DNA of 64,000 nucleotides, taken from the sequence record MH675927.1, one strand, 5' to 3'. Below, in pieces: positions 46,992-62,480 of this stretch (position 1 is the first letter of the stretch; the number at the start of each line of letters is the position of its first letter). The stretch comes from Escherichia phage vB_vPM_PD114. Both the position numbers and the translations under genes were made by a program. The notes under the pieces were generated by a model. It saw nothing but the letters and a program-made list of their open reading frames with translations. It was not told the origin of the DNA and did not search any database.

Positions 46992-49151
46992 ATGAAACAG
47001 GCTATTTTTACTGTAACTCGAAATACGAGAGTAAATGCCAGTTCATTCAGCTATAAGACCGTCGATGGAACGGCGGTCGCTGGTAGAGATTATGTAGCTA
47101 AACAGGGAACAGTAACGTTCCCTTCTGATGCAGATTCTGCTACTGTAGTGGTTGATGTATATGAACGTCCGGCAAACTCTTTAGATCTTTATTTTACTCT
47201 TGAGATTACTAGCATAAGTCAAAATAACATGATGATCAATGAAGAAATTCGTTGTGTTATTACGACTAATCAATCGAATACAACCCCGCTAACTTGGCCT
47301 GTTGTGAAGTCTAGAATGTTTGATCCTAAGTTTTGGACAATAGATTCTCAAGCAACAGAAAGTTGTTCTATTATCTCTAATGGTGATTCTTTCACAGCAA
47401 GAATGGTTAATAGGACAGTGGCTGGTCTTGCTGGGATTATTTGGTCAACTTACGATAAATATGATCACAAAGGATTAGGCTACCAAGAACATTCTGACTT
47501 AAGTAAAGAGAAACTTTGGTTTAAAATGGAACTTAGTCAAGGTGTTCCTGGATTAAAAGAAGAAAAATTATTGCCATCCTTAACAGTGACACTGAAGGAT
47601 GAAACAGTTCATTATGTATCTCTAAACTTTTATGCAGAAGAAGTTTCAGAGGATGGTAAAACAGCAACAATCAAATTAGATTTCTCAAATTTAAAATCTG
47701 GGCCAGAAAATAATATTGTTGTTGACACTACACAGGTAGATAATATGTTCTTCTCCTTGATCTCCACAAGGTATCAAGAAATTGAAGATATTATTCCTGT
47801 AGAGAATGAGGATCTTTCCTTTAAGTTTACCATACTGGAACCTGATACGGGTTATAGTATGATGAATATGGGTAATTTAAATGTTCCAGCACACACCATA
47901 AGAATGTGTACATCTTATGATGATATGTATAACCTTACCCCAGAGCGAGTTATTTCTAACACCTACAGATTAGGTTATAGGGATATGATTAACCACTATA
48001 ATGGTATGTCACACTATTATCAATTTAGTTGGGACGCTGGCTCTAATAAATGGGCTTTGAACAGAACAGAATATTTAAACCCAGCAACAGAAGCCTGGTT
48101 TGATAACTTCCACGCTAATGCAAAAGCTATGGGCTACACAGTAATGAACTCCTTAAGTTTTGAACTTATGAGTACAGTGTGTCCTGTAGAATGGGTACAA
48201 CATACTTGGAATGATGATCTGGCTGCTACAGGTTATGAGCCACCAAGTTATGTTTTATCTCCTTCAATTGACGAAGGGATGAATTATTTACAAGGTGTAA
48301 TAAATAAGATAGCTTCTATATCCGCTGCTAATGATCTTCCGGTTATTATTCAGGTTGGTGAACCGTGGTGGTGGTATAACACAGCTACCAATGTACCGTG
48401 TATTTATGATTATACAACCAAAGTTGCATTTAATAATGAAACTGGATTATATGCACAAGATGTTGGTACAGTTAAAAATTATAAAACTGGTACACCATAT
48501 GATGAATATTATGCATTCCTATCTAAAACATTAGGACTGCGTGTTGCTAAATTTGCAACAGATACCAGATTAGCATACCCTGGAGCGAAAGTTACATTGT
48601 TACCATTTGTACCATCCATCTTAGGTAATGGTATGATGGAGTTTGTTAACTTCCCTAAAGATTATTATATCCCAGAAAACTTTGACTTTTATTGTTCAGA
48701 ATGTTATGACTGGTTGTTGGAAGGTAAAATGGAAAGATCTTTCGACGCTATCACAATACCTAATGAGCAACTAGGTTTTAGTTACGATAAGATACATTAT
48801 CTTGCAGGGTTTGTTCCAGATGCAACTCTAGCACCATTATATGGCTTTGATCCTGAATCAAACTATAGAACATATTTGTGGAAAATGATTATAGGCAATA
48901 TTGTATTGAATGACCAGAAGTTTGTTGGTTTATATCAATACATATGGGCTTACCCACAAATAATGCATGATTCAATAACTGTTCTTAATTCAAAATCCCA
49001 AGTGTTTTATATGGGTAATGTGCCTTTGAATTGCTACTTGCAAGATATCACTCTTAAACAGGTAAATGTTGAGATTGCCACTATAAGTGGAATTACATTA
49101 GCCACTAAATCTGGAGAAGATTTAGTAACAACACAAAAATTTTATATATAG
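46992..49151 (+). CDS. baseplate/tail structural protein (719 aa)
   Basis: ORF track. Confidence 0.4.
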   Translation: MKQAIFTVTRNTRVNASSFSYKTVDGTAVAGRDYVAKQGTVTFPSDADSATVVVDVYERPANSLDLYFTLEITSISQNNMMINEEIRCVITTNQSNTTPLTWPVVKSRMFDPKFWTIDSQATESCSIISNGDSFTARMVNRTVAGLAGIIWSTYDKYDHKGLGYQEHSDLSKEKLWFKMELSQGVPGLKEEKLLPSLTVTLKDETVHYVSLNFYAEEVSEDGKTATIKLDFSNLKSGPENNIVVDTTQVDNMFFSLISTRYQEIEDIIPVENEDLSFKFTILEPDTGYSMMNMGNLNVPAHTIRMCTSYDDMYNLTPERVISNTYRLGYRDMINHYNGMSHYYQFSWDAGSNKWALNRTEYLNPATEAWFDNFHANAKAMGYTVMNSLSFELMSTVCPVEWVQHTWNDDLAATGYEPPSYVLSPSIDEGMNYLQGVINKIASISAANDLPVIIQVGEPWWWYNTATNVPCIYDYTTKVAFNNETGLYAQDVGTVKNYKTGTPYDEYYAFLSKTLGLRVAKFATDTRLAYPGAKVTLLPFVPSILGNGMMEFVNFPKDYYIPENFDFYCSECYDWLLEGKMERSFDAITIPNEQLGFSYDKIHYLAGFVPDATLAPLYGFDPESNYRTYLWKMIIGNIVLNDQKFVGLYQYIWAYPQIMHDSITVLNSKSQVFYMGNVPLNCYLQDITLKQVNVEIATISGITLATKSGEDLVTTQKFYI

Positions 49152-49159
49152 GAGTAAAA

Positions 49160-51277
49160 ATGTCAACTACAATTACTAATTTACCCGAAACATCAAAAGT
49201 TAATGGTTCTGATTACCTGGTTTTAGACCAACCTGATAAGACTGTTAAAAGCACAGTTTCCAACTTTCTTGCTGACACTGGGGTGGTTTTAGCCACCCAG
49301 TTGAAAGATACAGATGGAGCAGATTTAATACAATCCTCAAATGGTAATACTGTTCAGGAAGAGTTGAATAACAATCTTCTTAATGATCGTGAACAGTGGC
49401 GTCGTAGTCTTGCTGAAGCGGGGTTAACACTTGTTGATGGTAGCTTTGAGGATGGTGCTACATTAAATAATAATACTGATGCTGTTTGGTATATTGCAGG
49501 TGGACAGTGCTATACATGGGGTGGTGCTTTCCCTAAAGCTGTTCCCGCTGACTCAACCCCTACATCAACCGGTGGTGTTGGTCCTAGTGCGTGGGCTAGT
49601 GTTGGTGATGCCACCCTGAGGGGTGATTTAAATAAAACAAATGGCTTGTCTTATATAGGAACTGCATCATCAGTTTCTGAGTTATCATCAATATCAGGAT
49701 CAATTGGTGATTCCATAATACTTGATTCGTATGTGAGCGGTTTTAACTTTGGTGGTGGTATTATGGTAGCTGTTAGCGCGGATACAGCTATAGACAATAT
49801 TGTTACCTTCCCCGGAAACGGTGTGGTATGGAAAAGAAAATTCTTCAATGGTTCCGTGGATGTGTATGATGCTGGTTATACTGGAACCGAAGATTTGGCG
49901 GTATTCATCAACACAATAAACGCTGCCGGGTTTGACTGTGTAGTCCCTGTTTCAGGAGAGATAACAACACCAATTATTTTCGACATAGCAAAAGGCGCAC
50001 TTATTGGAAAAAATAAATGTACTTTAACAGAATCTTCATCTGTAACCGGTGACTACTACCTAACCATCATTAATACAGGCGCTGATTACACTAACAGAGA
50101 TGCAATTAACGCAACTTCTTTGATTAGTGGTGTGTCATTCGTCGGGAAAGGTTCCAGGAAATTGGCTATCGGTGGTTCTACCAGTGGTGAAGTATCAGAG
50201 TTAAGAATCTCTAATAGTGGGTTTATCTCAACTGCCGGGATTGAGTTTCTTGATAATGCATATCGTATTCTTTTTGATAAATGTGCGTTGTCCAGAAGTT
50301 TTACAAATTCTGTTATTTTCAATTCACCAGCAAATTCCGGTGAAGTTATAAGATTTAATCATTGTTGGATGGTTGACAACGGTGGACCTTTCACATTTGT
50401 TAATGGTCAATTTATATTCGATGGCTGCTCTCTGCCAGCAGGTAAAAAATCAGGATATTTTGACCCTGCTGTTGCGCTATCTGATAACGCAACAGTGGTT
50501 TTCACAAACGGTAACATTGAGTACCAACCTGGTCAGAGTTTCGTTGGGTTTACTGTGGAGGGCAGTTCACGATTAACCGTCAGTAATTCGACGATACTAC
50601 TCCCAGACGGGTATACCAGTGTACCTATTGTTAGCAACGGCGATGGGGTTGTTAGCCTAAATAATTGCTCGTTATCCCTCTATGGGAATACAACGATTGC
50701 TACTGGATTTCCCACAAGACAGTTGATAGGTGGCGCGAGCAAAAAAGTAATGTCCAGAGGGTGCTATCCACGGGCAGGATTTATCACAAGTAACTGGAAT
50801 TTAGGGAGCATTGTAAGCCCTTATATTAATAGCATCAGTAATGGCTCAGGACAGTTTTTAAACACATCTAACTGGACACTATCGCAAACTGGAACAGGAG
50901 TTGTCACTGCTACTACAGCAAACGATGTTCCTAATGATTTAATGTTTTCAACTTCTTTTGTTTTATCTGTACCATCAGCTGAGGCAGCAGCTAATTTCAC
51001 CCAAACAATCATTGATTGTGAGCCTGGTCGTTATTTTCAGCTTGGTTTTTGGGCTAAAAATCTAACAACAACCCTGGCGTCAATTAGATTCCTGGACCAG
51101 CAAGGAAATGCTGTTGCGGATTCCATAGGGTATAACATCCCAGTAGGCGACACATTCAATTTTTATGCTTTAGTGGATTCAGTCCCTCAAGGAGCATACA
51201 AGGCTGAGGTGAATTTTAATGTTGGGAACTCGATTGGCAGTTTAACAATACACAATGTAGTGTATGGTTTAATATAA
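49160..51277 (+). CDS. tail fibre / tail spike protein (putative)
   Basis: N-terminal fibre-anchor-like motif; shares YTWGG..PKAVPADSTPTSTGG module with the 58558 ORF. Confidence 0.45.
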   Translation: MSTTITNLPETSKVNGSDYLVLDQPDKTVKSTVSNFLADTGVVLATQLKDTDGADLIQSSNGNTVQEELNNNLLNDREQWRRSLAEAGLTLVDGSFEDGATLNNNTDAVWYIAGGQCYTWGGAFPKAVPADSTPTSTGGVGPSAWASVGDATLRGDLNKTNGLSYIGTASSVSELSSISGSIGDSIILDSYVSGFNFGGGIMVAVSADTAIDNIVTFPGNGVVWKRKFFNGSVDVYDAGYTGTEDLAVFINTINAAGFDCVVPVSGEITTPIIFDIAKGALIGKNKCTLTESSSVTGDYYLTIINTGADYTNRDAINATSLISGVSFVGKGSRKLAIGGSTSGEVSELRISNSGFISTAGIEFLDNAYRILFDKCALSRSFTNSVIFNSPANSGEVIRFNHCWMVDNGGPFTFVNGQFIFDGCSLPAGKKSGYFDPAVALSDNATVVFTNGNIEYQPGQSFVGFTVEGSSRLTVSNSTILLPDGYTSVPIVSNGDGVVSLNNCSLSLYGNTTIATGFPTRQLIGGASKKVMSRGCYPRAGFITSNWNLGSIVSPYINSISNGSGQFLNTSNWTLSQTGTGVVTATTANDVPNDLMFSTSFVLSVPSAEAAANFTQTIIDCEPGRYFQLGFWAKNLTTTLASIRFLDQQGNAVADSIGYNIPVGDTFNFYALVDSVPQGAYKAEVNFNVGNSIGSLTIHNVVYGLI

Positions 51278-51524
51278 AACCCCGCTTCGGCGGGGGAAAT
51301 GAATACTTACTTATTGATGACAAGAGGCCAAAAATGGCATTCCGCACAACCCATACAAACTATGTCCTGCAAGCGCATGTCATCGCCATGTGATAAAATG
51401 ATGAAAACATATCGTAGCAGGGTTAATCTTGTCTTTAGTTACTATCGTACTAACTCAAAGTGTTGTCACTACCACTGCAAGCCCCTCCAAAGAGGGGCTT
51501 ACTTAGAAAAACAAAGAGGTTGTT

Positions 51525-51833
51525 ATGAACGAAATGTTCTCCCAAGGTGGTAAAGGTTCAACCGGAATCTTAACCAATAAACAAGCAGTAGCCCGTCACT
51601 TTGGAGTTAAACAATCTGAGGTTGTTTACTTCTCAGTTGGTGTGGATTTGGGTGGGTATAAGGTTATCTATGATAAGGAGACGCAAAGGGCGTATTCCCT
51701 ACCTGCTGATATTGCCCCAGGTACTACTGCCATTAGTCTTAGTGCTGCTGTACTTGTGCATTCAGCGGGTTCTGTAGACCTTGGGGAATTAGCTGTATAT
51801 CGTGATTTAAAAAGTAATGAGAACGCACCATGA
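51525..51833 (+). CDS. hypothetical protein (102 aa)
   Basis: ORF track. Confidence 0.35.
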   Translation: MNEMFSQGGKGSTGILTNKQAVARHFGVKQSEVVYFSVGVDLGGYKVIYDKETQRAYSLPADIAPGTTAISLSAAVLVHSAGSVDLGELAVYRDLKSNENAP

Positions 51834-52075
51834 GAAAATTTTTAATAGGTATGTTTTGTACATATCCTGATAATAAAGTCAGTTCTACTAAAGTTTGGAA
51901 TGCTATTGGTATGATTGTTATGTCCAGTATGTTTATTTATTTGGGAATTGATAAAGAAATTCCTGAATGGATGGGCTGGGCTTTTGTTTTTATGATCACA
52001 CCATCCAGACTAATGAAGAATTTAATAGATTTACGTTGGGGCAGATCACCTGCCCCTGATAAGGAGGATAATTAA
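51830..52075 (+). CDS. small two-TM membrane protein (holin-like topology; function unproven)
   Basis: Hydrophobic segments VWNAIGMIVMSSMFIYLGI and WMGWAFVFMITP; ATGA overlap with upstream ORF. Confidence 0.3.
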   Translation: MRKFLIGMFCTYPDNKVSSTKVWNAIGMIVMSSMFIYLGIDKEIPEWMGWAFVFMITPSRLMKNLIDLRWGRSPAPDKEDN

Positions 52076-53562
52076 TGGCAGATTATGGTTTAACAGATGC
52101 TGGTTTTGTAATTCCAACGTTTGATGATATTTTAAATAATTATATGACAGCATTGAAAAACACTTTCGGTGCAGATACAGCTACATCTGAAGATACTGTC
52201 TTTGGTCAACTGTTCCGTATTATTGCATACACAGATTACACCCTTTGGGAAGGTATGCAAGGTGTTTACAATACCCAAACCTTAGATGGTGCAGAAGGTA
52301 TTTACCTTGATGAAATCTTCTCTAAAAGAGGTTTTTATCGTAAAGCTGCTTCTGCTGGTAGTGGTCATGCTTATGTTAAATCTAACAATAAGGCAGCTTG
52401 GACTTATGAGCTAAGCACAGATGTTTATTTTAATGCCGATAACGATTTGACATATTATGTCAGTGCACCAACAATGTTGAATGCTAAGATTGGAGCATAC
52501 ACCATTTCTAAAGCAAACGCAACAGCTTCTGGTGAAACTTCTATTACTTTCTACATTCAAAGTGCTATTGATGGTGGTCTTAACAGTAAAACATTAAGTC
52601 CTAGCAATACAAACTTTATTTTAGATCTCACGAATTTCATTAAAGCTAACGTATCAACAACAGATCGTGCTTTAGTATGGAATGATGCTAGTAATGTTTA
52701 TATGGGTTATAATCCAGAAGATAATGTTAACCCAATAGGTCTAGTAACACCAGTGAAATTTTACGCATCTATTGCAATTGGTACAAAATGGAGTGAAATT
52801 CCAGTTACGTGTTCAGACGTTGGTTATAATCCAGTAGGTACAGAAAGTATTACAGGTATTTCTTCAACGTTTACAGGCTTTTTAGATACAGGTAACTTCT
52901 ATCCATTCTCTCCAGGTACGGATGTTGAAACAGATGCAGAATTCCGCTCTCGTTTCAATGATAATATGGATGAAGCTAATGCTGCTACTCGTGCTGCTAT
53001 TGTTAAAGCTCTACTACTGACAGATGGTGTGACAAAGGTTAAGATTTATGATAACCCTACACTACATGATCAGGAACATGCTCCAGCTATGACATTCCAG
53101 ACTATTGTGTATGGTGGTACAGCAGAAGAAGTTGCACAGGTTATTTATAATACTAAGCCTATTAACACCTTAACCTATGGTACAACAGCAATTACTATCA
53201 TAACAGAAGATGGTGGTCAAGAAGTAATTCGTTTTTCTCCTGGGGATAATGCGGAATACTCGCTTAAACTGGTGTATCAAACTGGCAATGGTAGTGTGTT
53301 AAGTACAACAGAAAGGGAAAATATTGTTTCTGCTCTTGCAAACTTACAGGCTTATTTTGAATTAGGGTCAACAGTAACTAACGATCAGATAAAAGGTGTA
53401 ATTTATTCTGCACTTGCGTTCGGACGCTTGACTTCTCTCCGTGTTTATGTTAAACTTAATACTGAGGATGACAGTAAATATAATGAGGGAGATATTACTC
53501 CAGCGTACAATGTTGTACCATCCTTTGACCTTGATAATATTTCCTACGAGTACGGAGTCTAA
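52075..53562 (+). CDS. baseplate/tail structural protein (495 aa)
   Basis: ORF track; TAATG coupling. Confidence 0.35.
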   Translation: MADYGLTDAGFVIPTFDDILNNYMTALKNTFGADTATSEDTVFGQLFRIIAYTDYTLWEGMQGVYNTQTLDGAEGIYLDEIFSKRGFYRKAASAGSGHAYVKSNNKAAWTYELSTDVYFNADNDLTYYVSAPTMLNAKIGAYTISKANATASGETSITFYIQSAIDGGLNSKTLSPSNTNFILDLTNFIKANVSTTDRALVWNDASNVYMGYNPEDNVNPIGLVTPVKFYASIAIGTKWSEIPVTCSDVGYNPVGTESITGISSTFTGFLDTGNFYPFSPGTDVETDAEFRSRFNDNMDEANAATRAAIVKALLLTDGVTKVKIYDNPTLHDQEHAPAMTFQTIVYGGTAEEVAQVIYNTKPINTLTYGTTAITIITEDGGQEVIRFSPGDNAEYSLKLVYQTGNGSVLSTTERENIVSALANLQAYFELGSTVTNDQIKGVIYSALAFGRLTSLRVYVKLNTEDDSKYNEGDITPAYNVVPSFDLDNISYEYGV

Positions 53563-53564
53563 AA

Positions 53565-54194
53565 ATGGCAGTGAGTGTTGACCATGTGACAACGTGGGAT
53601 AGTATCAATGAAGATGTTAAAGACCTACTGATTGAAGATTTTAAATCTTCTCCGAACATTGTCAAACTACTCTATATCATTTCTAGCGAAAAACAAAAGA
53701 TAGATCAGGCAATGATCTATCTTGCCAAACACCGCTTAATCTCTACTGCAACTGGTAAGTATTTAGATCTTATTGGTGAAGAAATGGGAATGGAAAGAAA
53801 TGGTGCTACAGATGAAGAGTATCGTACAATATTAAAAATCAGGGCTTATCGTGTTGCGTCTTCTGGTACGCGAGATGATATCATTGATATGTTCGCTCGT
53901 TTTACAGGAACAGAAAAAGAAACGATTAATACATACGTTGGATTAAATAAAACATTCGACGTATTCTTTTATAATTTGTGTCTACAATCCGATCAGGCAG
54001 TAGCACAGTTACTTAACGTTTTCCCGATCCTAAGTAGTTATCGCTTAGGTGCGAAAGCGGGTTCAGCCTTTGGTTTCACTTCCTATTATGCCACAAATCC
54101 ACCTCATGGTATAGGTGGTTTAGGTTCTCTTTACACAGAGGCTGAAGGAGATGATACAGGGCGAATGACTATGCTGATAGCTCAAATAGAATAA
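53565..54194 (+). CDS. tail structural protein (209 aa)
   Basis: ORF track. Confidence 0.35.
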   Translation: MAVSVDHVTTWDSINEDVKDLLIEDFKSSPNIVKLLYIISSEKQKIDQAMIYLAKHRLISTATGKYLDLIGEEMGMERNGATDEEYRTILKIRAYRVASSGTRDDIIDMFARFTGTEKETINTYVGLNKTFDVFFYNLCLQSDQAVAQLLNVFPILSSYRLGAKAGSAFGFTSYYATNPPHGIGGLGSLYTEAEGDDTGRMTMLIAQIE

Positions 54195-54207
54195 GGAGTT
54201 ACCCTTA

Positions 54208-55191
54208 ATGGCAAAGCCACAATACTACCCTGACTGGGCGACACAAACAGTAACCCTCCCAGGAACGGGAAACACAAACAAGATTAGACCAAAAGAAACC
54301 ATCCGTAATGTCGGTATGGACTTTGGTCAGATTATGACTTGTGAAGAAATGAACTGGATCTTAAACAATATTGGGTCTTGGATTCGCTATATGCAAGATG
54401 AATTCTTCCCAACATTGCCTACGACATATCTTCCTATAGTCGGTACTAAAATTACAATGGCAGGTGATGCTACAGGTGAAGTTACATGGAATGGTAATGC
54501 TGCTGTAACATTATCTATTCAAGTCGTAGATAACAGTCACAATCACTTATCAGCTAACATTACAGACGCAACATCAAGCCAAGTTGTAGGGAATGTCCTT
54601 GTTAAGCGTGATAATGGTGGTGCTATCTATGCAGGTGATATTTACACTTGTGGTACAGGTGCTACAGATCCTGCAACATTATTTTTTAGAAACTATAATG
54701 GACAAACAGTAGGCAATATGTCTTCTGAACCAGGTGCAGGTGATCAACTCTATATTTATAGAATAAATCCATCTACTGGAGGAACATCTTGTGGAGTCCG
54801 TTTGTATGATGCAGGTTATGTTTTAATAGACAATCCTCGTTCTAATTCTGGTCAAGATACTGGCAATGGTAATGCTCTTGTAAGATTAGATTATCTTAAC
54901 TCAAGACTAAACTCATTGCAAAGTACACTGCAAAATAATATTAACAACGTTAATAGCAACTTGCAAGGCCAAATTAATAACATTAACAATAGAGTTTCTT
55001 CTGTTGTGTCTTCTATCCGTCTAGGAGCACGTATCCAAGCTGGTGTGTCCGAGTCTCGTTTCTATGCTGGTCACGTGATCACAGGTTGGGGCTTTGGTGA
55101 TAAGAAAGAACTTCGTGGTGCTTGGTATTGGTCAGCCCCGCTACAATATTATATTAATGGTAGCTGGATAACAGTAACCAACGTTTCATAA
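54208..55191 (+). CDS. tail fibre-like protein (327 aa)
   Basis: N/Q-rich coiled segment LQSTLQNNINNVNSNLQGQINNINNR; ORF track. Confidence 0.35.
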   Translation: MAKPQYYPDWATQTVTLPGTGNTNKIRPKETIRNVGMDFGQIMTCEEMNWILNNIGSWIRYMQDEFFPTLPTTYLPIVGTKITMAGDATGEVTWNGNAAVTLSIQVVDNSHNHLSANITDATSSQVVGNVLVKRDNGGAIYAGDIYTCGTGATDPATLFFRNYNGQTVGNMSSEPGAGDQLYIYRINPSTGGTSCGVRLYDAGYVLIDNPRSNSGQDTGNGNALVRLDYLNSRLNSLQSTLQNNINNVNSNLQGQINNINNRVSSVVSSIRLGARIQAGVSESRFYAGHVITGWGFGDKKELRGAWYWSAPLQYYINGSWITVTNVS

Positions 55192-55200
55192 GGAGAGTCT

Positions 55201-55752
55201 ATGAAAAAAGATGTTATTTTTACAGGTTTTGAATTGTACGAACCGGAATTAACAGAGGAGAACATTCTTTATCTTTCTGTTGGCGGTGGTTTTTTGCAAG
55301 ACAAGGATGGTAATGATTGGTATCAACTTCAAAAAACTTTGATGGCTGAATATCCCGACGCTTATTTCATTACCTTAGATGATAATAATATTGTACGTGG
55401 TGCTACTAAAGATGTTACTACCTATTTCCCTGCCGGACAATCTATTTTAGTTACATATAATGCACCAGATAAAATAGAAGATGAAAGTAATATTGGCTCT
55501 TGGCAATATGTTGAAGGTAAATTTGTTCCTCACAATAGTCTTGCTATTGAAGATGCTACTCTTAAGTTAGAAAAGGAGTTAACTTGGGCTACGAATCAAG
55601 TGTCTGCGATTCAAGATTTAGAGGAATTACAAGGTTTATCTCAAGAACAAAAAGATTGGTTAGGAAAAGTTAAACTATATCGTGCAACACTGATTCAAAT
55701 TAACGTTGAAGATGCACCTAATATAACTTGGCCTACAAGACCTAAGAAATAG
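55201..55752 (+). CDS. tail fibre assembly/chaperone-like protein (putative)
   Basis: 183 aa ORF immediately after a fibre-like gene. Confidence 0.3.
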   Translation: MKKDVIFTGFELYEPELTEENILYLSVGGGFLQDKDGNDWYQLQKTLMAEYPDAYFITLDDNNIVRGATKDVTTYFPAGQSILVTYNAPDKIEDESNIGSWQYVEGKFVPHNSLAIEDATLKLEKELTWATNQVSAIQDLEELQGLSQEQKDWLGKVKLYRATLIQINVEDAPNITWPTRPKK

Positions 55753-55761
55753 GGGTAATGT

Positions 55762-56103
55762 ATGGAGCTAACAGAAGTATGGGATATCGCTAAAGAGGCG
55801 ATTATCCCTCTTATTGGTGTAATCTGGGTGGTCTTCAAACAGAAGATAGATGATATGGCAAGTGATTTGGACAAAATGGAAGAGAAATACCGTGAACTAG
55901 AAAAGAAGTTGGTGTTTGTTGAATCCACTTATGCTACCAAAGCAGAACTTGCTCAAATGCTTAACCAGATCAACTCTACATTAATGGCAAATAATACTGC
56001 CTTAGAACAGAAGATTGAAAAAATAATGGATTTAAAAAATGCTCCTGTTCAATTAATGCTAGAGGAGATTACGAAGCGCACACAAAGTAAGGACAAAAAT
56101 TAA
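55762..56103 (+). CDS. hypothetical coiled-coil protein (113 aa)
   Basis: ORF track. Confidence 0.3.
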   Translation: MELTEVWDIAKEAIIPLIGVIWVVFKQKIDDMASDLDKMEEKYRELEKKLVFVESTYATKAELAQMLNQINSTLMANNTALEQKIEKIMDLKNAPVQLMLEEITKRTQSKDKN

Positions 56104-58517
56104 TGGCGAATTTTCCAACATATCCTGCTACGACACTAGAACAAGGTGTTGATCTGGTTATATTCTCGTCTAACCAGATGCATGATGTTATTAACGGGGA
56201 TGCTACAGCAACTGTAGAAACCGAAACAGGTTTAATACCTACACTGCGTAAAGCACTTGTTGATAACTTCTTCTTTAAGAGTCCTGTTGCTTGGTCAGCA
56301 GGATCAACTGAAACTGTATTTAACCAGTTACGTTATTTTGAAAACGGCATCTTGAGTGGGTACTACTATGCCCCATCTGCCACTACTGCGAACCCTGTAC
56401 CTATGCAGGGTACACCTGTAGGAGACAGTAACTGGACTCTGTACGCTCTTAAAACTGAACAGTTAGCTTCAGATGTGTATCCTTGGTATTTTAAAGGTGC
56501 TACAGGATATGAAACAGAAATCAGTCCTCCTTATATCTTTGATAATGCTATTGTCACCATTAACGGTGTAATTCAGATTCAAGGTGAAGCATTTACTATC
56601 AAAGATAGTAAAATTATTCTGGCAGAACCATTAGGTTTAGATCCGTCTACTGGTCTACCTAACAAATTGTTTGCTTTTATTGGTAAAACAACAGCCTCTA
56701 CTTCTTATGTAGAGAAAAACCTTTTGTCATCTACCACTGGTGCAGCAATGGTTGGTCTTCCATCTGGAGGCAACCTGTTACAAGCTCAATACTTTGTAAC
56801 GCCTGAACAGTTTGGTGCAATTGGTGATGGAGTTACCGATGATACTCAAGCAATTCTAAAAACCATTACTTTCGCTAACACGAATAACATTCAAGTACGT
56901 GCAGATAAGAATTATAGATTCACAAGCTCAATTGCTATGTCTGGTATTCGTTGGTATGGTGGTACATTCACTGGTAACGGTGGAACAATGATTTCTACTG
57001 TGTCCTGTTGGATTGAAAACGTTCGCTTTGAAAAATGTTATGTTAAGATGTTAGGTGGTGATTGTCGATTCTATCGTAATATCTTCTCCAACGCAACATC
57101 TACAGCAGCATTTTTAATGCAAGCAATGACAAGTGAAGGTACGTTGGACTTCAGTTACAACGAAATGTATGGTTGTAAATATGCGATCCTGCAACAAGGT
57201 ACTGGAGAAGTAATGACCTATGGGCGTTACTCTAACAACTACATTCACGATATCAAAGGTGATGCTATTGAACTTAACGTAGTTCAAAGACACTACACTG
57301 AAGGTTTGATCATCGAGAATAACCACATTGCTAACGTAGATGCTTCTGGACAAGGTGCAAACTGGGGTATTGGTATTGGTGTAGCAGGTAGTGGCCCATA
57401 TGGTGTTGATGCTCCTGATTCACAATATGTACGTAACTTCAGTATCGTTGGAAATAGGGTTTACAATTGCCGTCAATGTCTACACGTTGAAATGGGTAAA
57501 AACTTCACAATACGTGATAACGAAGTTTATCCTAACACAGCAGTTTCAACAGGTACAGGTTTAACTACTTGTGGTGTTGCATTATACGGATGCCAAGACT
57601 TTGAAGTTGATGGTTTAACTGGTTATCTGCTTAATGATCCGTCTGTTTCAACACGCATGGTCTTTATTGACTGGGGTGTTAACGGTGGAAGATATGCGGG
57701 GCCACCAATTAACTTTACAATTAAGAATTTGGATATTCCAGAATCTTCGATTGAGATTGCAACTGCTGGATCAGACGACTGGGAAAACTCTACAATTGTT
57801 AGTAACATCAATTGTAATGATTTTAAATGGCGTGGGCTACCATCTAGCTCTACTTTTAATAATATTCGTTGCCGTAGTATTGACTTTATTGGTCAACACG
57901 GAAGCGGAGAAGGAAGTGGTGGCGGTTTCTATGCTCGCAGCCAATTCACGTATATGAAGTGGGTAGGATGTACAGCACTTAGCGGAGATGAAACAACAGT
58001 TTCTTTTGCTAAAATCTACACGGATCGTTGCGATCAGGTTGGAAATAACTTTGGTGTTCCAACTGCTGTTGATGGTACAGGTCATCGTGGGCCAGTCTTA
58101 ACCACTATTTCTGAACAATATTTTACAGATTATGATGAATTCCCAGGTGGGCGTGACTTCCCTACTGGAACAGTTATTCATTGTGCAAGCGGTAAAAAAC
58201 ACGTTGTTACAGCAGGTGGTGCTTTCTTTAGTGATAATGAGAAAATAAAAGCAACTGTTACAGGTCAAACCTATCTACAGTCTAATGCTTTAAACTGGGC
58301 TAGTAATGGCTACGCTAAAGCAGCAGGTACTAAGATTGTTATTCCAGGTGCAGGAGCAAATGGTGGCGATCTTGTGACAACTATAGCACGTGCTACATAT
58401 GTGACAAATAGTTTGTACACAATAGATATTGCAGATCCAATTGTAACACCTACAGCAGAGAATACACAAATTAAAGCTCTGAACCCTGTTACTTTTGTTA
58501 CTGTCAATAATGCTTAA
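56103..58517 (+). CDS. tail spike protein (804 aa; beta-helix/pectate-lyase-like fold suspected)
   Basis: Large ORF with repetitive G/N/T-rich segments typical of beta-helix tailspikes; terminator follows. Fold not verified. Confidence 0.4.
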   Translation: MANFPTYPATTLEQGVDLVIFSSNQMHDVINGDATATVETETGLIPTLRKALVDNFFFKSPVAWSAGSTETVFNQLRYFENGILSGYYYAPSATTANPVPMQGTPVGDSNWTLYALKTEQLASDVYPWYFKGATGYETEISPPYIFDNAIVTINGVIQIQGEAFTIKDSKIILAEPLGLDPSTGLPNKLFAFIGKTTASTSYVEKNLLSSTTGAAMVGLPSGGNLLQAQYFVTPEQFGAIGDGVTDDTQAILKTITFANTNNIQVRADKNYRFTSSIAMSGIRWYGGTFTGNGGTMISTVSCWIENVRFEKCYVKMLGGDCRFYRNIFSNATSTAAFLMQAMTSEGTLDFSYNEMYGCKYAILQQGTGEVMTYGRYSNNYIHDIKGDAIELNVVQRHYTEGLIIENNHIANVDASGQGANWGIGIGVAGSGPYGVDAPDSQYVRNFSIVGNRVYNCRQCLHVEMGKNFTIRDNEVYPNTAVSTGTGLTTCGVALYGCQDFEVDGLTGYLLNDPSVSTRMVFIDWGVNGGRYAGPPINFTIKNLDIPESSIEIATAGSDDWENSTIVSNINCNDFKWRGLPSSSTFNNIRCRSIDFIGQHGSGEGSGGGFYARSQFTYMKWVGCTALSGDETTVSFAKIYTDRCDQVGNNFGVPTAVDGTGHRGPVLTTISEQYFTDYDEFPGGRDFPTGTVIHCASGKKHVVTAGGAFFSDNEKIKATVTGQTYLQSNALNWASNGYAKAAGTKIVIPGAGANGGDLVTTIARATYVTNSLYTIDIADPIVTPTAENTQIKALNPVTFVTVNNA

Positions 58518-58520
58518 TTA

Positions 58521-58543
58521 AAAGGGGCTTTCGCCCCTTTATA
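58521..58543 (+). terminator. hairpin AAGGGGC-TTTC-GCCCCTT (same sequence as at 5341)
   Basis: Read directly. Confidence 0.45.
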
Positions 58544-58557
58544 AAAGGAGTAGTAAA

Positions 58558-60519
58558 GTGATTTTAACACGTCCAAATAGTGCCATTGCAGACATGGTAG
58601 AGTCTCGCTATAGAAAGCGTAGAAGTTTTGCAAGTGGTTTTACCTTAAGAGATGCTCGTGAAGCATTGCTCTTTGAAGCTGACGGTAACTACTATCAGTG
58701 GAAAGGTTCTCTACCTAAAGTTGTACCTGCTAACTCTACTCCTACATCTACTGGAGGGATTTCAGATACAGCTTGGAAAAATGTGGGTAATGCAGATGAC
58801 ATTGCTCAAATAGAATCAGAATTAGATGCTATTGAAGCTGAAATTGAAGATCTTAGAGAATCCATCCCAGAAGCTGGTAAATCAGCTTACCAGATGGCCG
58901 TAGACAATGGTTTCCAAGGTACTGAGACACAGTGGTTGGCTTCTTTAAAAGGTGATCCAGGTGCTCCATTAAAGCTATTAGGGACACTATCTAATACCAA
59001 CCAATTACCTACAAGTGGAAACAATGCAGGGGATGCATGGATTGTAGGCGAGAATATGTATGCTTGGGATGGTACTGCTTGGAGAAAAGTAAACTCACAG
59101 GGGCCAGAAGGTAAATCTGCTTATGAAGTATGGCTTGCAGCAGGAAACGAAGGTACAGAACTAGATTATCTTGCCGCAATTAAAGGTGATAAAGGGGAGC
59201 CTGGCCCAGAGGGGCCACAAGGTGTGCCAGGTAACAATGCTAATGGTTTTGATTACCAAGGTGCAGCTAATTCCGTTTCAGATCTTCCTTCTGCATCTCA
59301 TGGAAACACATCTCAAGCATGGAGTGTTGGTACATATCTATACGTGTCAAACGGTGTAGAATGGATCAATATGGGCGCTATAGTGGGGCCAAAAGGAGAT
59401 AAAGGCGACAAAGGAGATAAGGGTAACACTGGTGATTCAGCTTATCAAGTCTGGTTAAATGCTGGTAACGTTGGTACTATTGACGAATATATTGCCTCTC
59501 TGAAAGGAGAAAAAGGTGATAAGGGAGACAAGGGTGATCAAGGTGAACAGGGTATACAAGGCTTGACGGGGCCAACTGGTGCAGGGTTGACCATTATTGA
59601 CATTCTGACTAGCACTTCTGAACTGCCACAAACTGGAGAAGAGGGTGATGGTTATCTGATCAATAATGAACTTTGGGTCTGGTTGCAAGGAGCCACAGAG
59701 TGGACAAATGTTGGTCGTTTAGCTGGTACTCCAATCACTGCAAAAGGACACGTTGCGTCTGCAAGTGCACTTCCTCCTACAGCTAATTACGGTGATGCTT
59801 ATCTGACGGAAGATACAGGTCATCTTTACATTTACACCTATGATGAACAAACTCAAACTGCTGAATATGTAGATATGGGTAGTTTGAAAGGTGATAAGGG
59901 TGAAAAAGGTGACGCTGGTACTAACGGTACAGACGGTGCAACTTGGATTGTTAAAACAACAGATCCAATCTCTAGTGATGGTAAACAAGGTGATTATGCC
60001 TTTAATATCTCCACTGGCGAGGTGTTCTTAAAAACATCTGCAACTGTCTGGACTTCTCAAGGTACACTACCTAGTATCACAGATGCACCTAGTGATGGTA
60101 AGACTTATGCTCGTAAAGATGGAGCATGGGAAGAACTCACTAGTTCTGTAGATGGTCAAGATATAGTTCCAACAAAAGTAACAACTAATTTTATAGAGGT
60201 TACAGCATATACCAACAATTCTGTTACAGGGGACTGGACACCTCCAGGAACACATAACATGAATGTGTTGAATCTTACTGGTAACTCTACTATAAAAGCA
60301 TGGCCTGGTGTCGAAGATAGCACAAAACCTAAACCATTCTCTGCAATAGTTTATCTTATCCAAGATGCCACTGGAGGTCATACTGTTACTTTAGATCCAT
60401 CTTACAAAGTAATTGGTTCTAGTGATATTAATACAGATCCTAACGGAGTAACAATACTACAACTAACATATTGTGGTGTTGGCGATTACGTGGATGCTAT
60501 TGTTGCTAAACGCACATAA
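58558..60519 (+). CDS. tail fibre protein with collagen-like Gly-X-Y repeats
   Basis: GDKGEPGPEGPQGVPG, GPKGDKGDKGDKGNTGD, GEKGDKGDKGDQGEQGIQGLTGPTG, GDKGEKGDAGTNGTDG; GTG start after AAGGAG. Confidence 0.55.
   Translation: MILTRPNSAIADMVESRYRKRRSFASGFTLRDAREALLFEADGNYYQWKGSLPKVVPANSTPTSTGGISDTAWKNVGNADDIAQIESELDAIEAEIEDLRESIPEAGKSAYQMAVDNGFQGTETQWLASLKGDPGAPLKLLGTLSNTNQLPTSGNNAGDAWIVGENMYAWDGTAWRKVNSQGPEGKSAYEVWLAAGNEGTELDYLAAIKGDKGEPGPEGPQGVPGNNANGFDYQGAANSVSDLPSASHGNTSQAWSVGTYLYVSNGVEWINMGAIVGPKGDKGDKGDKGNTGDSAYQVWLNAGNVGTIDEYIASLKGEKGDKGDKGDQGEQGIQGLTGPTGAGLTIIDILTSTSELPQTGEEGDGYLINNELWVWLQGATEWTNVGRLAGTPITAKGHVASASALPPTANYGDAYLTEDTGHLYIYTYDEQTQTAEYVDMGSLKGDKGEKGDAGTNGTDGATWIVKTTDPISSDGKQGDYAFNISTGEVFLKTSATVWTSQGTLPSITDAPSDGKTYARKDGAWEELTSSVDGQDIVPTKVTTNFIEVTAYTNNSVTGDWTPPGTHNMNVLNLTGNSTIKAWPGVEDSTKPKPFSAIVYLIQDATGGHTVTLDPSYKVIGSSDINTDPNGVTILQLTYCGVGDYVDAIVAKRT
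59390..59580 (+). repeat. collagen-like triplet-repeat coding region (GGN-GAN-AAR periodicity)
   Basis: Nucleotide-level 9-nt periodic repeats ggagataaaggcgacaaaggagataagggt... Confidence 0.5.
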
Positions 60520-60522
60520 TCA

Positions 60523-60547
60523 AAGCCCCTTCGGGGGCTTATTATTT
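60523..60547 (+). terminator. rho-independent terminator AAGCCCC-TTCG-GGGGCTT + TTATTATTT
   Basis: Read directly. Confidence 0.5.
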
Positions 60548-60558
60548 AAGGAGATTAA

Positions 60559-62445
60559 ATGTATCCTATTCCTTTATTTATGTCAACAACATCAGCTTCA
60601 GTAGTAACAGCTACGTCTATAACCACTTCCTCTATTGGTATTGCAATAGTTGGTAGTAAAAAGCAACTGACATACACAGTTTCACCAGAAGATGGTGCGT
60701 TATTTGATATAGCTTTTTCATCTTCAGATAATACCAAAATGGTTATAGATAATAACGGTATGATGGAGTTTGTTGCTGAAGGCGGTTTTGATGCAATAAT
60801 GACAGCTAAAAATAATTTAGGTGCTGTCTTAACTGATCAATCTGGTGGCTATGCTTCAGAATTAAGTGTGTACACTGAAAGTCTGTCTGCTATGGATGCA
60901 GGAACTACTCAACAATTGGTTGCTACAATCAGTCCAGAAGGTGCTAAAGACCTTCCAGACATGGTAATTACGTACACCACAACAGATCCAGAAGTAGCTA
61001 CTGTAAGCCCTACAGGATTAATAACTGCTCTTAAAGATGGCAGTTGCCGTATAGGTTGTACTGCAACTTATCAAGGAACAGTGGTGGCCTCTGATAGTTC
61101 TTATTTAGGTGTTAATGCTATTCCTGTTATTTCTAATGTAACAGCCGTGGCAAACAGCTATGGAGACATTCGTGTTGCTTGGGATGTAGCTGATCCGCTA
61201 GATGGTGATACTTATACTGTAGAAGTATTAGATTTAAGTAATAACAGTGTCCAGTGGACTACAACAACCACGAATACTTACGCTTACTTTGATATCTCTG
61301 ACTCTATTCCTCTTTATGGGTTTGCTCCAACATACCTTAAAATTAGCGTTAAGAGCACCAAAGCAGCACCCGTTATCTTTAATAACTCAATAGCTACAGA
61401 TGATTCATTCATTAAAGAAGTTATTGTCTTTGCTGGACAAGATAACGTAAATGCACACTTTACAGAATTATCTGGTGCAAATAAAGCAGCAATGAGTAGC
61501 ACAACAGCCCGTAACGCATATGCTACGCAACGTGGTTTAGCAAATGCTGAAGTTCTTCCGTTAAATGCAGCTTCTGGATCATCAGCAGCAGATAAATATG
61601 CAGATGATAAAGCCGGAACAGGTACACCAGACAACTACTGGTATGATCTGGATAACGCAGCAGATGGGCCATGCTTAACTAATTTTATCACTAAAGTCAC
61701 ACCTTATGCAAGTAAGGTTAAAGCAATTATTTGGGGACAAGGTGAAAACGATGCTGTATCAGCATCTTCGACTGTTGCAGGTAGGTACAGTAACACTACA
61801 CGTTACCATGATGCTACGATAGCTATCTTTGATAAGATGCGTACAATAGTTCCTGCTTCTCAAGCAAAAATTGTTTGGCAGATCCTAGGACGTTCTTATC
61901 TATATGGTGTAGAAGTTAATGGTGTGGATTGGCAGAAATACAGAAATGTACAAAGAACCATCTCTACAGCACGTGACGATGTTATCATTGGTTCTTGGGT
62001 GGATGGTGCTGAACGCTACAGTGGTTATGTTTATGAAGAAGGTATTGATGGTCGTATCCATTATGTTTCTTCTGTATATCAAACAGCAGCTACAAAACTT
62101 GCTAAATCAGCAGCAGACGGTACAGACTTAACATCAACACCGCCTGTTTGGGTTGATATGTCTGTTCCAACAGGAGGAGCCGCTGTAAGACAAGCTAACC
62201 AAGATGCAATTATTTCTTGGGAACCAGCAGGATATACCAAACATTACTTCCGAAATGTAAACGTCCTCACAGCAGCAATTCTTACAGAACAAACTCTTGA
62301 TACTAACACTTACACATTTACTTATGCAGATCAGGTTGAACAATACGGGTTTGCAGCAGGTACAACAGTGTTTGATGTTGCACACTATGATGCTGATAAT
62401 GACGTGTTATCACCTCTTGTCAGATTTACAGTTAATATTACATAA
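60559..62445 (+). CDS. tail protein with Ig-like (Big_2-type) domains and SGNH/SASA-like esterase domain
   Basis: N-terminal Ig-like repeats (TYTVSPEDGALFDIAFSSSDNTKMV...); C-terminal AIIWGQGENDA motif typical of sialate O-acetylesterase/SGNH hydrolases. Confidence 0.45.
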   Translation: MYPIPLFMSTTSASVVTATSITTSSIGIAIVGSKKQLTYTVSPEDGALFDIAFSSSDNTKMVIDNNGMMEFVAEGGFDAIMTAKNNLGAVLTDQSGGYASELSVYTESLSAMDAGTTQQLVATISPEGAKDLPDMVITYTTTDPEVATVSPTGLITALKDGSCRIGCTATYQGTVVASDSSYLGVNAIPVISNVTAVANSYGDIRVAWDVADPLDGDTYTVEVLDLSNNSVQWTTTTTNTYAYFDISDSIPLYGFAPTYLKISVKSTKAAPVIFNNSIATDDSFIKEVIVFAGQDNVNAHFTELSGANKAAMSSTTARNAYATQRGLANAEVLPLNAASGSSAADKYADDKAGTGTPDNYWYDLDNAADGPCLTNFITKVTPYASKVKAIIWGQGENDAVSASSTVAGRYSNTTRYHDATIAIFDKMRTIVPASQAKIVWQILGRSYLYGVEVNGVDWQKYRNVQRTISTARDDVIIGSWVDGAERYSGYVYEEGIDGRIHYVSSVYQTAATKLAKSAADGTDLTSTPPVWVDMSVPTGGAAVRQANQDAIISWEPAGYTKHYFRNVNVLTAAILTEQTLDTNTYTFTYADQVEQYGFAAGTTVFDVAHYDADNDVLSPLVRFTVNIT

Positions 62446-62450
62446 ACAAA

Positions 62451-62477
62451 AAGGAGCCATTAGGCTCCTTTTCTTTT
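62451..62477. terminator. bidirectional terminator AAGGAGCC-ATTA-GGCTCCTT between convergent genes
   Basis: A-run upstream and T-run downstream of a perfect 8-bp stem; near-identical hairpin at 63621. Confidence 0.55.
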
Positions 62478-62480
62478 ATC

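Follow-up and report, generated by a model that had tools for sequence, protein, structure and literature searches.

One of the closest described counterparts of the locus analyzed here is the multivalent adsorption apparatus of phage phi92 (Stephanstirmvirinae, Justusliebigvirus; Schwarzer et al., 2012, J Virol 86:10384), and the locus is already known as a multivalent "Swiss-army-knife" tail-fibre locus. In the 2026 cryo-EM study of phi92, the gp147-type short fibre was placed as fibre III, fibres I and II were not resolved and the density of gp143 was not discernible (PMC13450770). Other described systems are the tailspikes TSP1-TSP4 of the Kuttervirus CBA120 (Plattner et al., 2019; PDB 4OJ5, 5W6F, 5W6H), among which TSP4 recognises O78 (PMC11414711, PMC10408124), and the gp63.1-type RBP2 (PDB 4QNL) of G7C-like Gamaleyavirus, a podovirus that has the tandem domains TD1 and TD2 together with the receptor-binding body in a single polypeptide, which presumably docks on gp66. 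In both types of tailspike, TD2 is a small neck domain directly ahead of the receptor-binding body. The modular design and one tailspike gene of this locus have already been published; Pas et al. (2023; PMC10408124) give the gene product as an O78 receptor-binding protein gained by horizontal transfer, and their Table S1 has it as "PD06_RBP, O78, HGT, anchor 151".

The tail-fibre locus

The window, namely the whole stretch of 64,000 nt that was analyzed, shares 99.1% DNA identity over 19.5 kb with vB_vPM_PD06, a phi92-like Justusliebigvirus, and its gene order is syntenic with phi92 gp134-gp153. By its sequence, the region can be assigned to a phi92-like myovirus of Justusliebigvirus, being in essence the tail-fibre locus of vB_vPM_PD06. 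Between the tape measure gene and the final fibre gene, the order is that of phi92, the backbones have 97-98% DNA identity, and homologues of phi92 gp140, gp141, gp142, gp147, gp150 (colanidase) and gp151 (collagen-like) are all present. The ORF coordinates given by an earlier sequence-only reading proved correct.

43634..44107, + strand: small fibre or adaptor protein of 157 aa, like phi92 gp140; an N-terminal anchor motif precedes a beta-sandwich C-terminal domain
44107..46983, + strand: conserved tail protein of 958 aa, like phi92 gp141 (99.5% identical in aa to that of PaulScherrer)
46992..49151, + strand: phi92 gp142-like protein, carrying "non-contractile tail sheath" domains of the N4 gp65 type (Pfam)
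49160..51277, + strand: chimeric tailspike in the phi92 gp143 slot, 705 aa (PD06 orthologue YP_009984702.1)
54208..55191, + strand: short tail fibre, phi92 gp147-like, conserved
56103..58517, + strand: homologue of the phi92 gp150 colanidase tailspike; its N-terminal module is a different one
58558..60519, + strand: collagen-like fibre, phi92 gp151 homologue, 653 aa (phrog_15437 over the full length)
60559..62445, + strand: last fibre gene, 628 aa, Big_2 domain (Pfam), variable 3' end

The gp141-like protein has neither a Pfam nor a PDB sequence match, and the gp142-like protein contains PF23845 (E=1e-81), PF23844 (E=7e-21) and Calx-beta (E=2e-9). In the colanidase tailspike, aa 180-804 match PDB 6E0V (phi92 gp150, E=0) and the N-terminus (aa 9-116) matches phrog_4549; its similarity to the gp143-slot tailspike is not significant. 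In comparison with PaulScherrer, the remaining fibre genes are 98-99% conserved, except for the last one, which is 94% identical and shorter, the PaulScherrer orthologue (939 aa) being identical over aa 1-628 only. Instead of this single 628-aa ORF, phi92 has two, gp152 and gp153. The collagen-like fibre and the other fibres are conserved parts of the apparatus. In slot 143, the window has an O78-type beta-helix tailspike with TD2 and phi92 the endosialidase EndoN92, the common part being limited to aa 1-54.

Shared N-terminal modules and the tailspike in the gp143 slot

43658..43771, + strand: first copy of the N-terminal anchor motif, gp140-like protein, aa 9-46 (BLASTP against the tailspike, HMM test)
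49160..49321, + strand: N-terminal anchor, copy 2, aa 1-54, putative genus-specific attachment module (96% identity to phi92 gp143)
49436..49609, + strand: TD2/PF18668 Tail_spike_N, copy 1, aa 93-150, where left-hand recombination junctions lie (Pfam E=3.9e-18)
49613..51277, + strand: O78-type receptor-binding and enzymatic module, aa 152-705 (by similarity to TSP4)
51280..51295, strand not assigned: GC-rich hairpin CCCCGC-TTCG-GCGGGG, 3 nt past the tailspike stop codon (phiHAO78-1 homology reaches 51296)
58588..58788, + strand: TD2/PF18668, copy 2, aa 11-77, extreme N-terminus of the collagen-like fibre (Pfam E=4.3e-21)

The motif L-P-x-T-x-x-V-x-x-x-D-Y-x-V-x-D-Q, which the sequence-only reading had picked out in the gp140-like protein and the tailspike, is literally found in both, and these are exactly the two ORFs of the window that carry it; their N-termini have 15 of 38 residues in common (BLASTP, E=2e-5). 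An HMM built only from N-termini of the gp140-like type has the tailspike as its sole other match in the window (E=0.016, domain E=0.003; runner-up E=2), aligned at the extreme N-terminus. The first 54 residues of the tailspike are 96% identical to those of the phi92 endosialidase gp143, after which the proteins are unrelated. In fact, the first 42-54 residues show 90-96% identity in relatives whose downstream parts are unrelated, including the phi92 endosialidase; the same pattern is found in ECO340P2 and AV126, and DNA homology (blastn) stops at 49288 for alia and at 49310 for SD2, corresponding to aa 43-50. Furthermore, the small proteins P0020, P0021 and P0023 and the family phrog_7760 unite the anchor with TD2-region sequence and the C-terminal domain of gp140. 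This module of about 45-54 residues (module A) would be the N-terminal anchor of the gp140-like protein and of the tailspike, and may fix both trimers to the baseplate.

A second block is common to the tailspike (aa 95-151) and the collagen-like fibre (aa 23-79), with 57 residues aligned without gaps at 51% identity. The sequence-only reading had named it a "PxxVPAxSTPTSTGG module"; the common block is real, although it is not new, since it is the known domain PF18668 Tail_spike_N, the second tandem domain (TD2/D2) of CBA120-type tailspikes, which is seen in 1,683 phage records from many genera. Copy 1 has PDB matches to TSP1, TSP3, TSP4 and 4QNL; the domain matches TSP1 (4OJ5) residues 99-171 and residues 85-144 of the TSP4 fragment, and in the collagen-like fibre the PDB matches are confined to this block.

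It is scarcely conceivable that fibre proteins rich in Ser, Thr and Gly match here by chance or through low complexity, even though the block holds a stretch of that composition (STPTSTGG): the protein alignment is significant with composition-based statistics (BLASTP, E=3e-13), the two blocks score 65.7 and 75.2 bits, 2.6-3 times the PF18668 gathering cut-off of 25 bits, and a phmmer search with the collagen-like fibre block against the 574 six-frame ORF segments of the window retrieves only the tailspike (E=2.4e-15; next E=1.5), so that this explanation is already refuted. The presence of two TD2 and two anchor copies on the same strand within 15 kb could recall duplication or gene conversion between the fibre genes of this genome. 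However, this is very improbable and already contradicted at the DNA level, where the TD2 copies are 60% identical and share exact runs of at most 8 nt, the anchor copies are 54% identical, and each TD2 copy is nearer to those of other phages than to its neighbour, copy 1 being 82% identical to Kuttervirus Liang dang 541 over 49517-49630. Because the TD2 copies have diverged to this extent and the other fibre genes are so conserved with respect to PaulScherrer, the exchange is horizontal, between phages at one hot slot, and not among paralogous fibre genes. The domain shuffling proposed by the sequence-only reading is in this respect seen directly, as a constant anchor with unrelated downstream parts and a TSP4-like body, but it does not take place between paralogues.

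The tailspike is in fact a chimera of the genus anchor (residues 1-54), TD2 and a TSP4-like part. Its aa 92-705 are 81.9% identical to aa 425-1036 of CBA120 TSP4, and the O78-type module matches PDB 5W6H (TSP4, the O78-specific tailspike) over its full length (phmmer, E=0). TD2 and the whole receptor-binding body are common to TSP4, and the order TD2, receptor-binding body, intergenic region and TD1 is colinear with the CBA120 TSP4-TSP3 junction. Unlike CBA120, the tailspike of the window has a phi92-type anchor motif instead of the TSP4 anchor, no gp10-like XD domains were detected in it by sequence, and TD1 is a separate truncated downstream ORF rather than being fused to TD2. Among the Gamaleyavirus, PhAPEC7_70 (PhAPEC7 gp70) has a TD1-TD2-O78 body with 77% protein identity to aa 94-705. 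The DNA of the module recurs at 75-94% identity in Kuttervirus, Gamaleyavirus, Nonanavirus PJ16, phiHAO78-1 and ASO78B, several of them with O78 hosts. It is found at DNA level in at least five unrelated phage groups, and the O78-strain phages that carry it include myo-, sipho- and podoviruses. The cassette would be the O78 O-antigen-specific module that TSP4 also has, with its O78 specificity suggested by 82% identity to a characterised enzyme, and the hairpin past its stop codon is possibly the conserved downstream terminator "motif three" of PMC10408124. With respect to the PD06 receptor-binding protein (YP_009984702.1; 99.7% DNA identity), nothing substantive is different.

Cassette junctions and the free-standing TD1 stub

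49612..51575, + strand: cassette differing from Justusliebigvirus PaulScherrer, flanks 95-98% identical (blastn)
51525..51833, + strand: free-standing TD1 stub, 102 aa, corresponding to the N-terminal domain of CBA120/G7C-type tailspikes and truncated behind "LAV"; right-hand junction zone

In blastn comparisons with relatives, the left junctions fall at 49288-49311 or at 49575-49611. Those in the TD2 zone are the ends of DE16 (49575) and PaulScherrer (49611) homology, the latter coinciding with the anchor boundary given for PD06_RBP, residue 151, in the PMC10408124 entry, and Kuttervirus and Gamaleyavirus homology begins at 49517, inside the TD2 block. The right junctions are at 51504 (DE16), 51576 (PaulScherrer), 51673 (SD2), 51710 (alia) and 51835 (phi92, which lacks the stub). 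Stub aa 1-94 match CBA120 TSP1 (4OJ5) residues 1-95 (E=3.7e-49) and 4QNL residues 1-94, at the protein level the stub is 95.8% identical to the N-terminus of a Kuttervirus tailspike, and in the DNA the stub region is 80% identical to the first 275 nt of PhAPEC7 gp70 together with the 43 nt that precede them. No description of this ORF was found in the literature searched, and the accessible parts of PMC10408124 contain no mention of the stub, of the anchor common to gp140 or of TD2 in the collagen-like fibre.

We propose that TD2, being conserved in many unrelated lytic phages, may serve as a left-hand homology arm for recombination and the stub downstream of the spike as the right-hand arm, so that the receptor-binding cassette would be swapped between them; for the stub, this role is suggested by the junction positions in six relatives only. 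The stub might instead function as a protein, perhaps in assembly or as a docking-site cap, and not be a remnant whose sole contribution is homology. This is improbable, but the ORF is intact, identical in BME3 and preceded by a purine-rich, Shine-Dalgarno-like AGAGG sequence, and over its aa 1-72 all 23 codon changes relative to a Kuttervirus tailspike gene are synonymous. This synonymous-only divergence, however, could predate the transfer, having arisen in functional donor tailspike genes, and in the last 39 codons the Stephanstirmvirinae copies show 2-3.5 non-synonymous vs. 0-0.5 synonymous changes in 9 of 10 pairs (small numbers), the SD2-alia pair having one synonymous change only. Moreover, the stub is dispensable, being absent from phi92 and reduced in SD2 (64 aa) and alia (49 aa), which weighs against both readings.

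The collagen-like fibre and a possible role of TD2

59185..59238, + strand: Gly-X-Y block 1, 6 triplets, aa 210-227
59386..59439, + strand: Gly-X-Y block 2, 6 triplets, aa 277-294 (2 extra triplets in ESCO5)
59506..59586, + strand: Gly-X-Y block 3, 9 triplets, aa 317-343 (Pfam Collagen at aa 317-341)
59890..59943, + strand: Gly-X-Y block 4, 6 triplets, aa 445-462 (extra triplets, always in register: 1 in PD06, 5 in ESCO5)
60061..60144, + strand: weak foldon-like motif (DAPSDGKTYARKDGAWEEL; Pfam Fibritin_C E=0.0014, 19.2 bits, under the cut-off of 21)
60145..60516, + strand: C-terminal tip domain (phrog_4549, E=6e-39)
60523..60540, + strand: hairpin AAGCCCC-TTCG-GGGGCTT, directly past the stop codon

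The four Gly-X-Y blocks pointed out from the sequence are present in register, and Pfam Collagen scores 32.4 bits (cut-off 27.2). As in other collagen-like phage tail fibres (PF01391), the runs are uninterrupted and vary between relatives by whole triplets only; unlike them, they are short (6-9 triplets) and alternate with two further repeats, "SAY..W..GN.GT...Y.A..KG" and "LP..G..GD.W..G..LY.W.G..W". Identity of the protein is 97-99% among the Justusliebigvirus records sampled and drops to about 60% in Phapecoctavirus. Its tip domain is about 50% identical to the rV5 gp28 C-terminus and 46% to an Erwinia jumbo-phage protein, and its similarity to the gp140 C-terminal domain is only suggestive (hhalign E=2.9e-4, probability 40%).

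TD2 lies behind the anchor in the tailspike and at the very N-terminus in the collagen-like fibre, and it may have an attachment role; in slot 143, attachment does not need it, because TD2 is entirely missing from phi92 gp143. A less favoured possibility is that TD2 is mainly a docking domain plugging fibre into fibre, like TD1 into the gp10-like XD3 in CBA120, with the collagen-like fibre carried by another protein, such as the gp9/gp10-like gp140 homologue, in a branched complex. Consistent with this, the collagen-like fibre starts with TD2 at aa 11 and the anchor motif is absent from it, the gp140 model resembles the TSP4 anchor-XD region and T4-type gp9, and in phi92 fibre II, still unassigned, joins the base of fibre I (PMC13450770).

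Taken as a whole, what had been read from the sequence was real, correctly interpreted and already known. The homologies, the junction positions and the sharing across families being direct observations, we consider it highly probable that anchor A and TD2 are shared modules, that an O78-type receptor-binding cassette has been exchanged between TD2 and the stub, and that the other fibres are conserved; with equally high probability, the locus would encode several co-expressed receptor-binding proteins assembled from a small vocabulary of modules.

Modules shared by the spike and fibre genes

Nucleotide identity of the region 43000-62500 is 99.1% to Escherichia phage vB_vPM_PD06 over 19.5 kb and 97-98% to many further genomes of the genus Justusliebigvirus (phi92-like, Stephanstirmvirinae). 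The genes of the region, from the tape measure to the final fibre gene, follow the order of phi92 gp134-gp153. Identity to phi92 outside the cassette, which is the stretch exchanged in slot 143 (the position of gp143, an endosialidase in phi92), is 97-98%.

ORFs of the locus, named by their start coordinate, and their phi92 counterparts
43634: gp140 counterpart (gp140-like protein, 157 aa)
44107: gp141 counterpart
46992-49151: gp142 counterpart, with N4 gp65-type domains
49160-51277: gp143 slot (tailspike, 705 aa)
54208: gp147 counterpart, short fibre
56103: gp150 counterpart, colanidase (PDB 6E0V)
58558-60519: gp151 counterpart (collagen-like fibre, 653 aa)

The sequence-only reading had pointed to a block common to ORFs 49160 and 58558, and the similarity is real and significant when the block is properly aligned (57 aligned residues, 51% identity, E=3e-13); among the 574 six-frame segments of the window it is found in these two ORFs only. 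The block corresponds to the Pfam family PF18668, 'Tail spike TSP1/Gp66 receptor binding N-terminal domain', detected at aa 93-150 of ORF 49160 (65.7 bits, E=4e-18) and at aa 11-77 of ORF 58558 (75.2 bits, E=4e-21), both above the curated gathering cut-off of 25 bits. It matches CBA120 TSP1 (4OJ5, residues 99-171), TSP3 (98-209) and the TSP4 fragment 5W6H (85-144), and also the structure 4QNL of G7C gp63.1. In CBA120-type tailspikes, in which two tandem domains (TD1 and TD2) are distinguished, TD1 was placed at TSP1 residues 1-96 and TSP4 residues 344-421 by Sørensen et al. (PMC8432352); since a free-standing ORF beyond the spike gene, termed here the stub, matches TSP1 1-95, the block shared by the two ORFs is TD2 (D2).

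TD2 occurs in 1,683 phage records, among them Kuttervirus, Gamaleyavirus, Kayfunavirus, Kagunavirus, Klebsiella podoviruses and Jerseyvirus-like siphoviruses. In ORF 49160 it lies directly upstream of a TSP4-like receptor-binding body, as in 5W6H and 4OJ5, and in ORF 58558 upstream of a coiled coil and a collagen shaft rather than a receptor-binding body. DNA identity between the two coding blocks is 60%, and exact runs do not exceed 8 nt; judged from these sequences, the module shuffling is horizontal and not intragenomic.

A second module, the anchor (an N-terminal, putative attachment module of about 45-54 residues), is common to ORFs 43634 and 49160. The N-terminal motif that had been noticed in this pair holds in pairwise comparison (E=2e-5), and an HMM built from gp140-type N-termini only found, as its sole other match in the window, the extreme N-terminus of ORF 49160 (E=0.016; next E=2). 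The anchor coding blocks are 54% identical in DNA, and this type of anchor is also present at the N-termini of a few more distant representative-search matches, e.g. MAKKISQLPAASSIADTDELELNQAGTSRKGT.

The modules pointed out by the sequence-only reading are recombined in other arrangements elsewhere. In particular, the anchor, the TD2 region and the gp140 C-terminal domain come together in three small proteins of 220-224 aa (P0020, P0021 and P0023); for P0020 and P0021, the presence of PF18668 or of the TD2 motif was confirmed. The PHROG family phrog_7760 matches both aa 4-183 of ORF 49160 and aa 54-157 of gp140. The gp140 C-terminal domain (43769-44104), a beta-sandwich of about 100 aa, has no Pfam family match and is found in 8,108 representative clusters at E≤0.001, mostly in C-terminal position; some proteins, up to about 2,000 aa long, contain as many as 6 copies. 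The AF2 model of gp140 reached a pLDDT of 90.5 with 78 diverse sequences, versus 42.8 with 20 close homologues. It resembles several solved structures; in a Foldseek search of the PDB, no hit reached E≤0.001, and 24qj came closest (E=3e-3). The model is compatible with a baseplate-anchored adaptor or mini-fibre.

The exchanged cassette and its junctions

ORF 49160 is, on the following alignments, a chimera. Its N-terminus is a phi92-type anchor, and its residues 92-705 are 81.9% identical to residues 425-1036 of CBA120 TSP4 over 614 aa without large gaps, spanning the whole crystallised catalytic fragment 5W6H. The anchor of TSP4 and its gp10-like XD1-XD3 branching domains were not found in ORF 49160, the homology starting only at residue 425 of TSP4. 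Among the CBA120 spikes, TSP4 is the one specific for O78 (Plattner et al., cited in PMC11414711 and PMC10408124). At the DNA level, the receptor-binding module is found in Kutterviruses (86%, from nt 357-388 of the gene), in the Gamaleyaviruses PhAPEC5 and PhAPEC7 (76-80%), in the Nonanavirus PJ16 (94%) and in phiHAO78-1 and ASO78B (84-86%). Several phages carrying related module DNA were isolated on O78 strains, and the hosts of these relatives indirectly support a spike that would bind or cleave the E. coli O78 O-antigen. Further indirect support comes from Pas et al. (2023), who attribute O78 to horizontal transfer, with the entry 'PD06_RBP, YP_009984702.1, O78, HGT, anchor 151' (PMC10408124).

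On the left side, homology to the Justusliebigvirus and Phapecoctavirus relatives is confined to the 5' 450-462 nt of the ORF 49160 gene (93-97%), and other relatives, phi92 included, share only residues 1-42 to 1-54. The shared part thus ends at two places, defining two nested left boundaries, one after the anchor (aa 43-54) and one at the end of TD2 (aa 139-154). The phi92 gp143 has the anchor and lacks TD2, so that on this comparison the attachment of this spike must rest on the first ~54 residues, and TD2, to judge from the junctions, moves with cassettes from TD-bearing phages.

On the right side, the junctions lie in or just before the stub, and the point at which homology resumes differs from relative to relative.

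Window positions at which homology resumes to the right of the cassette
51352: ZCKP1, ukendt and podovirus U1G (96-99%)
51504: DE16
51576: PaulScherrer
51673: SD2
51710: alia
51835: phi92

The stub (51525-51833, + strand, 102 aa) matches, with its residues 1-94, the TD1 of CBA120 TSP1 (4OJ5 1-95, E=3.7e-49), a domain of the TSP1 / G7C gp63.1 type that is cut off here after about 94 residues, and is 95.8% identical to the N-terminus of a Kuttervirus tailspike. It is not the N-terminus of a full-length tailspike, as it stops after 102 aa and the next gene encodes a membrane protein. Its length is 64 aa in SD2 and 49 aa in alia; it is absent in phi92, and there are also relatives in which it is full length. 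TD2, receptor-binding body, intergenic region and TD1 follow each other as they do across the TSP4-TSP3 junction of CBA120, and the stub contains 'GTTAISL', the counterpart of 'GTTAVSL', which has been proposed as a recombination site (Sørensen et al., PMC8432352). We infer that an ancestor acquired a fragment reaching from the TD2 of one tailspike gene to the TD1 of the next, and that its two ends now serve as homology arms for head replacement by double crossover. Pas et al. propose as recombination hotspots two elements, including a terminator motif, conserved across Justusliebig-, Kutter- and Gamaleyaviruses (PMC10408124), and the hairpin at 51280-51295 may correspond to this motif. A 102-aa CDS adjoining the spike is mentioned in the BME3 paper, where it is interpreted as belonging to the tail spike; no description of the stub as a TD1 relic or junction zone was found in the literature searched on this locus.

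A codon comparison of the stub with the Kuttervirus gene over residues 1-72 shows 23 synonymous and 0 non-synonymous changes. This pattern could reflect selection on the stub; it could equally have arisen in functional donor genes. The few 3'-end differences among the Stephanstirmvirinae copies are mostly non-synonymous.

The 180 nt upstream of the stub (51352-51530) are 96% identical to the G7C-like podovirus U1G (MZ394712, 63795-63973; 73 kb) and 98-99% identical to several Stephanstirmvirinae, which points to a very recent DNA exchange between the large myovirus lineage and N4-like podoviruses. ORF 51299-51553 (84 aa), lying between the hairpin and the stub, was taken as spurious, being unannotated in PD06 and of odd Cys/Lys/Arg-rich composition.

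Conserved fibres and the second variable site

In comparison with PaulScherrer, all of the fibre genes but the last are 98-99% identical in protein, the collagen-like fibre included; similarity breaks off in just two places, at the cassette (49612-51575) and at the 3' end of the last fibre gene. In the colanidase, ORF 56103, residues 180-804 match PDB 6E0V (phi92 gp150; E=0, 1413 bits); this ORF has no significant similarity to ORF 49160 and so has a different N-terminal module.

The four Gly-X-Y runs that the sequence-only reading had seen in ORF 58558 are borne out, with 6, 6, 9 and 6 uninterrupted triplets, and the Pfam Collagen family (PF01391) scores 32.4 bits against a cut-off of 27.2 bits.

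Architecture of ORF 58558
aa 11-77: TD2
aa ~80-108: probable coiled coil
three modules of the type 'SAY...KG', with a Gly-X-Y run after each
five modules of the type 'LP..G..GD.W...W'
weak foldon-like motif (Fibritin_C, E=0.0014, under the cut-off)
aa 530-653: C-terminal tip

The tip is about 50% identical to rV5 gp28 and 46% identical to a jumbo-phage protein, these homologues being taken from tblastn of phage records, as a word-index search with the C-terminal 139 aa gave no matches. Length differences among the Gly-X-Y runs (59185-59943) are whole triplets (+1 in PD06; +2, +1 and +5 in ESCO5), which fits a triple helix in a collagen-like fibre and would agree with slippage on GDK/GEK repeats constrained by the triple-helix register. 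The fibre is 97-99% conserved in the sampled Justusliebigvirus records, and is therefore a fixed component that is not swapped. The phi92 record already describes the N-terminal domain of gp151 as similar to a potential 'capsid binding domain'. A further module combination of other phages is represented by phrog_4549 (tail fibre, 869 positions), which matches the colanidase N-terminus (aa 9-116; 56103-56450) and the collagen-like fibre tip (aa 526-653; 60133-60516).

The last fibre gene (60559-62445, + strand) is the second variable site of the locus: it encodes 628 aa here versus 939 aa in PaulScherrer (~311 extra C-terminal residues), with a junction near 62442, and phi92 has two genes here, gp152 and gp153, and differs by 226 nt (61148-61374). 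The family phrog_15324 (tail sheath and receptor binding protein) matches ORF 46992 with profile positions 358-415 and ORF 60559-62445 with positions 910-1084. ORF 46992 also has Pfam non-contractile tail sheath domains, presumably modelled on N4 gp65, and the modules of an N4 gp65-like protein may be spread over two genes, 46992-49151 and 60559-62445. Two genes converge here, one ending at 62445 (+) and the other at 62481 (-). Between them lies a perfect hairpin of 10-11 bp (62448-62473) that has T-runs on both strands and probably serves, at the end of the structural module, to terminate transcription from either side. Elsewhere in the window, at about 16000, the GC skew turns from negative to positive, probably reflecting a change in the transcription direction of gene blocks.

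Possible origin of the cassette and implications

Tentatively, and with the balance tilted slightly against the combined proposal, slot 143 may be described as a cassette on a two-armed landing pad, together with a gp140-like protein acting as a minimal gp9/gp10-type adaptor. The left arm would be the TD2 inside the spike gene, and the right arm the decaying, free-standing TD1 stub, a remnant of an array of tandem tailspikes from a Kuttervirus- or Gamaleyavirus-like donor. Through double crossovers in these arms the myovirus could repeatedly gain receptor-binding heads from unrelated phage families, each exchange trimming or refreshing the stub. The TD2-headed collagen fibre might dock on the gp140-like protein; if true, this would bear on fibre II of phi92.

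The observation of shared modules is confirmed and its interpretation supported. Such biology is usual in this group of phages, and for this very gene it has been published before; as both the principle and this O78 spike are in the literature, the finding confirms and does not extend what is known. The phi92 locus has been described as a 'nanosized Swiss army knife', a multivalent adsorption apparatus, discussed further in PMC8594841, PMC11984140 and PMC13450770, the last reporting several fibre types co-assembled on one baseplate by cryo-EM; from its gene content, the phage studied here would likewise assemble several fibre types on one baseplate. The host ranges of phi92-like phages are among the broadest of coliphages because several receptor-binding proteins are carried at once. 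The exchangeable head of this spike starts where TD2 ends, after residue 151, and the right-hand limit of the cassette lies within the stub downstream; such exact limits help in predicting the host serogroup from sequence and in engineering host range. The minor additions made here, namely the stub ORF as the right-hand junction zone and the small proteins combining anchor, TD2 and gp140 domain, could guide the design of cassette swaps and the assignment of fibres I and II in phi92.
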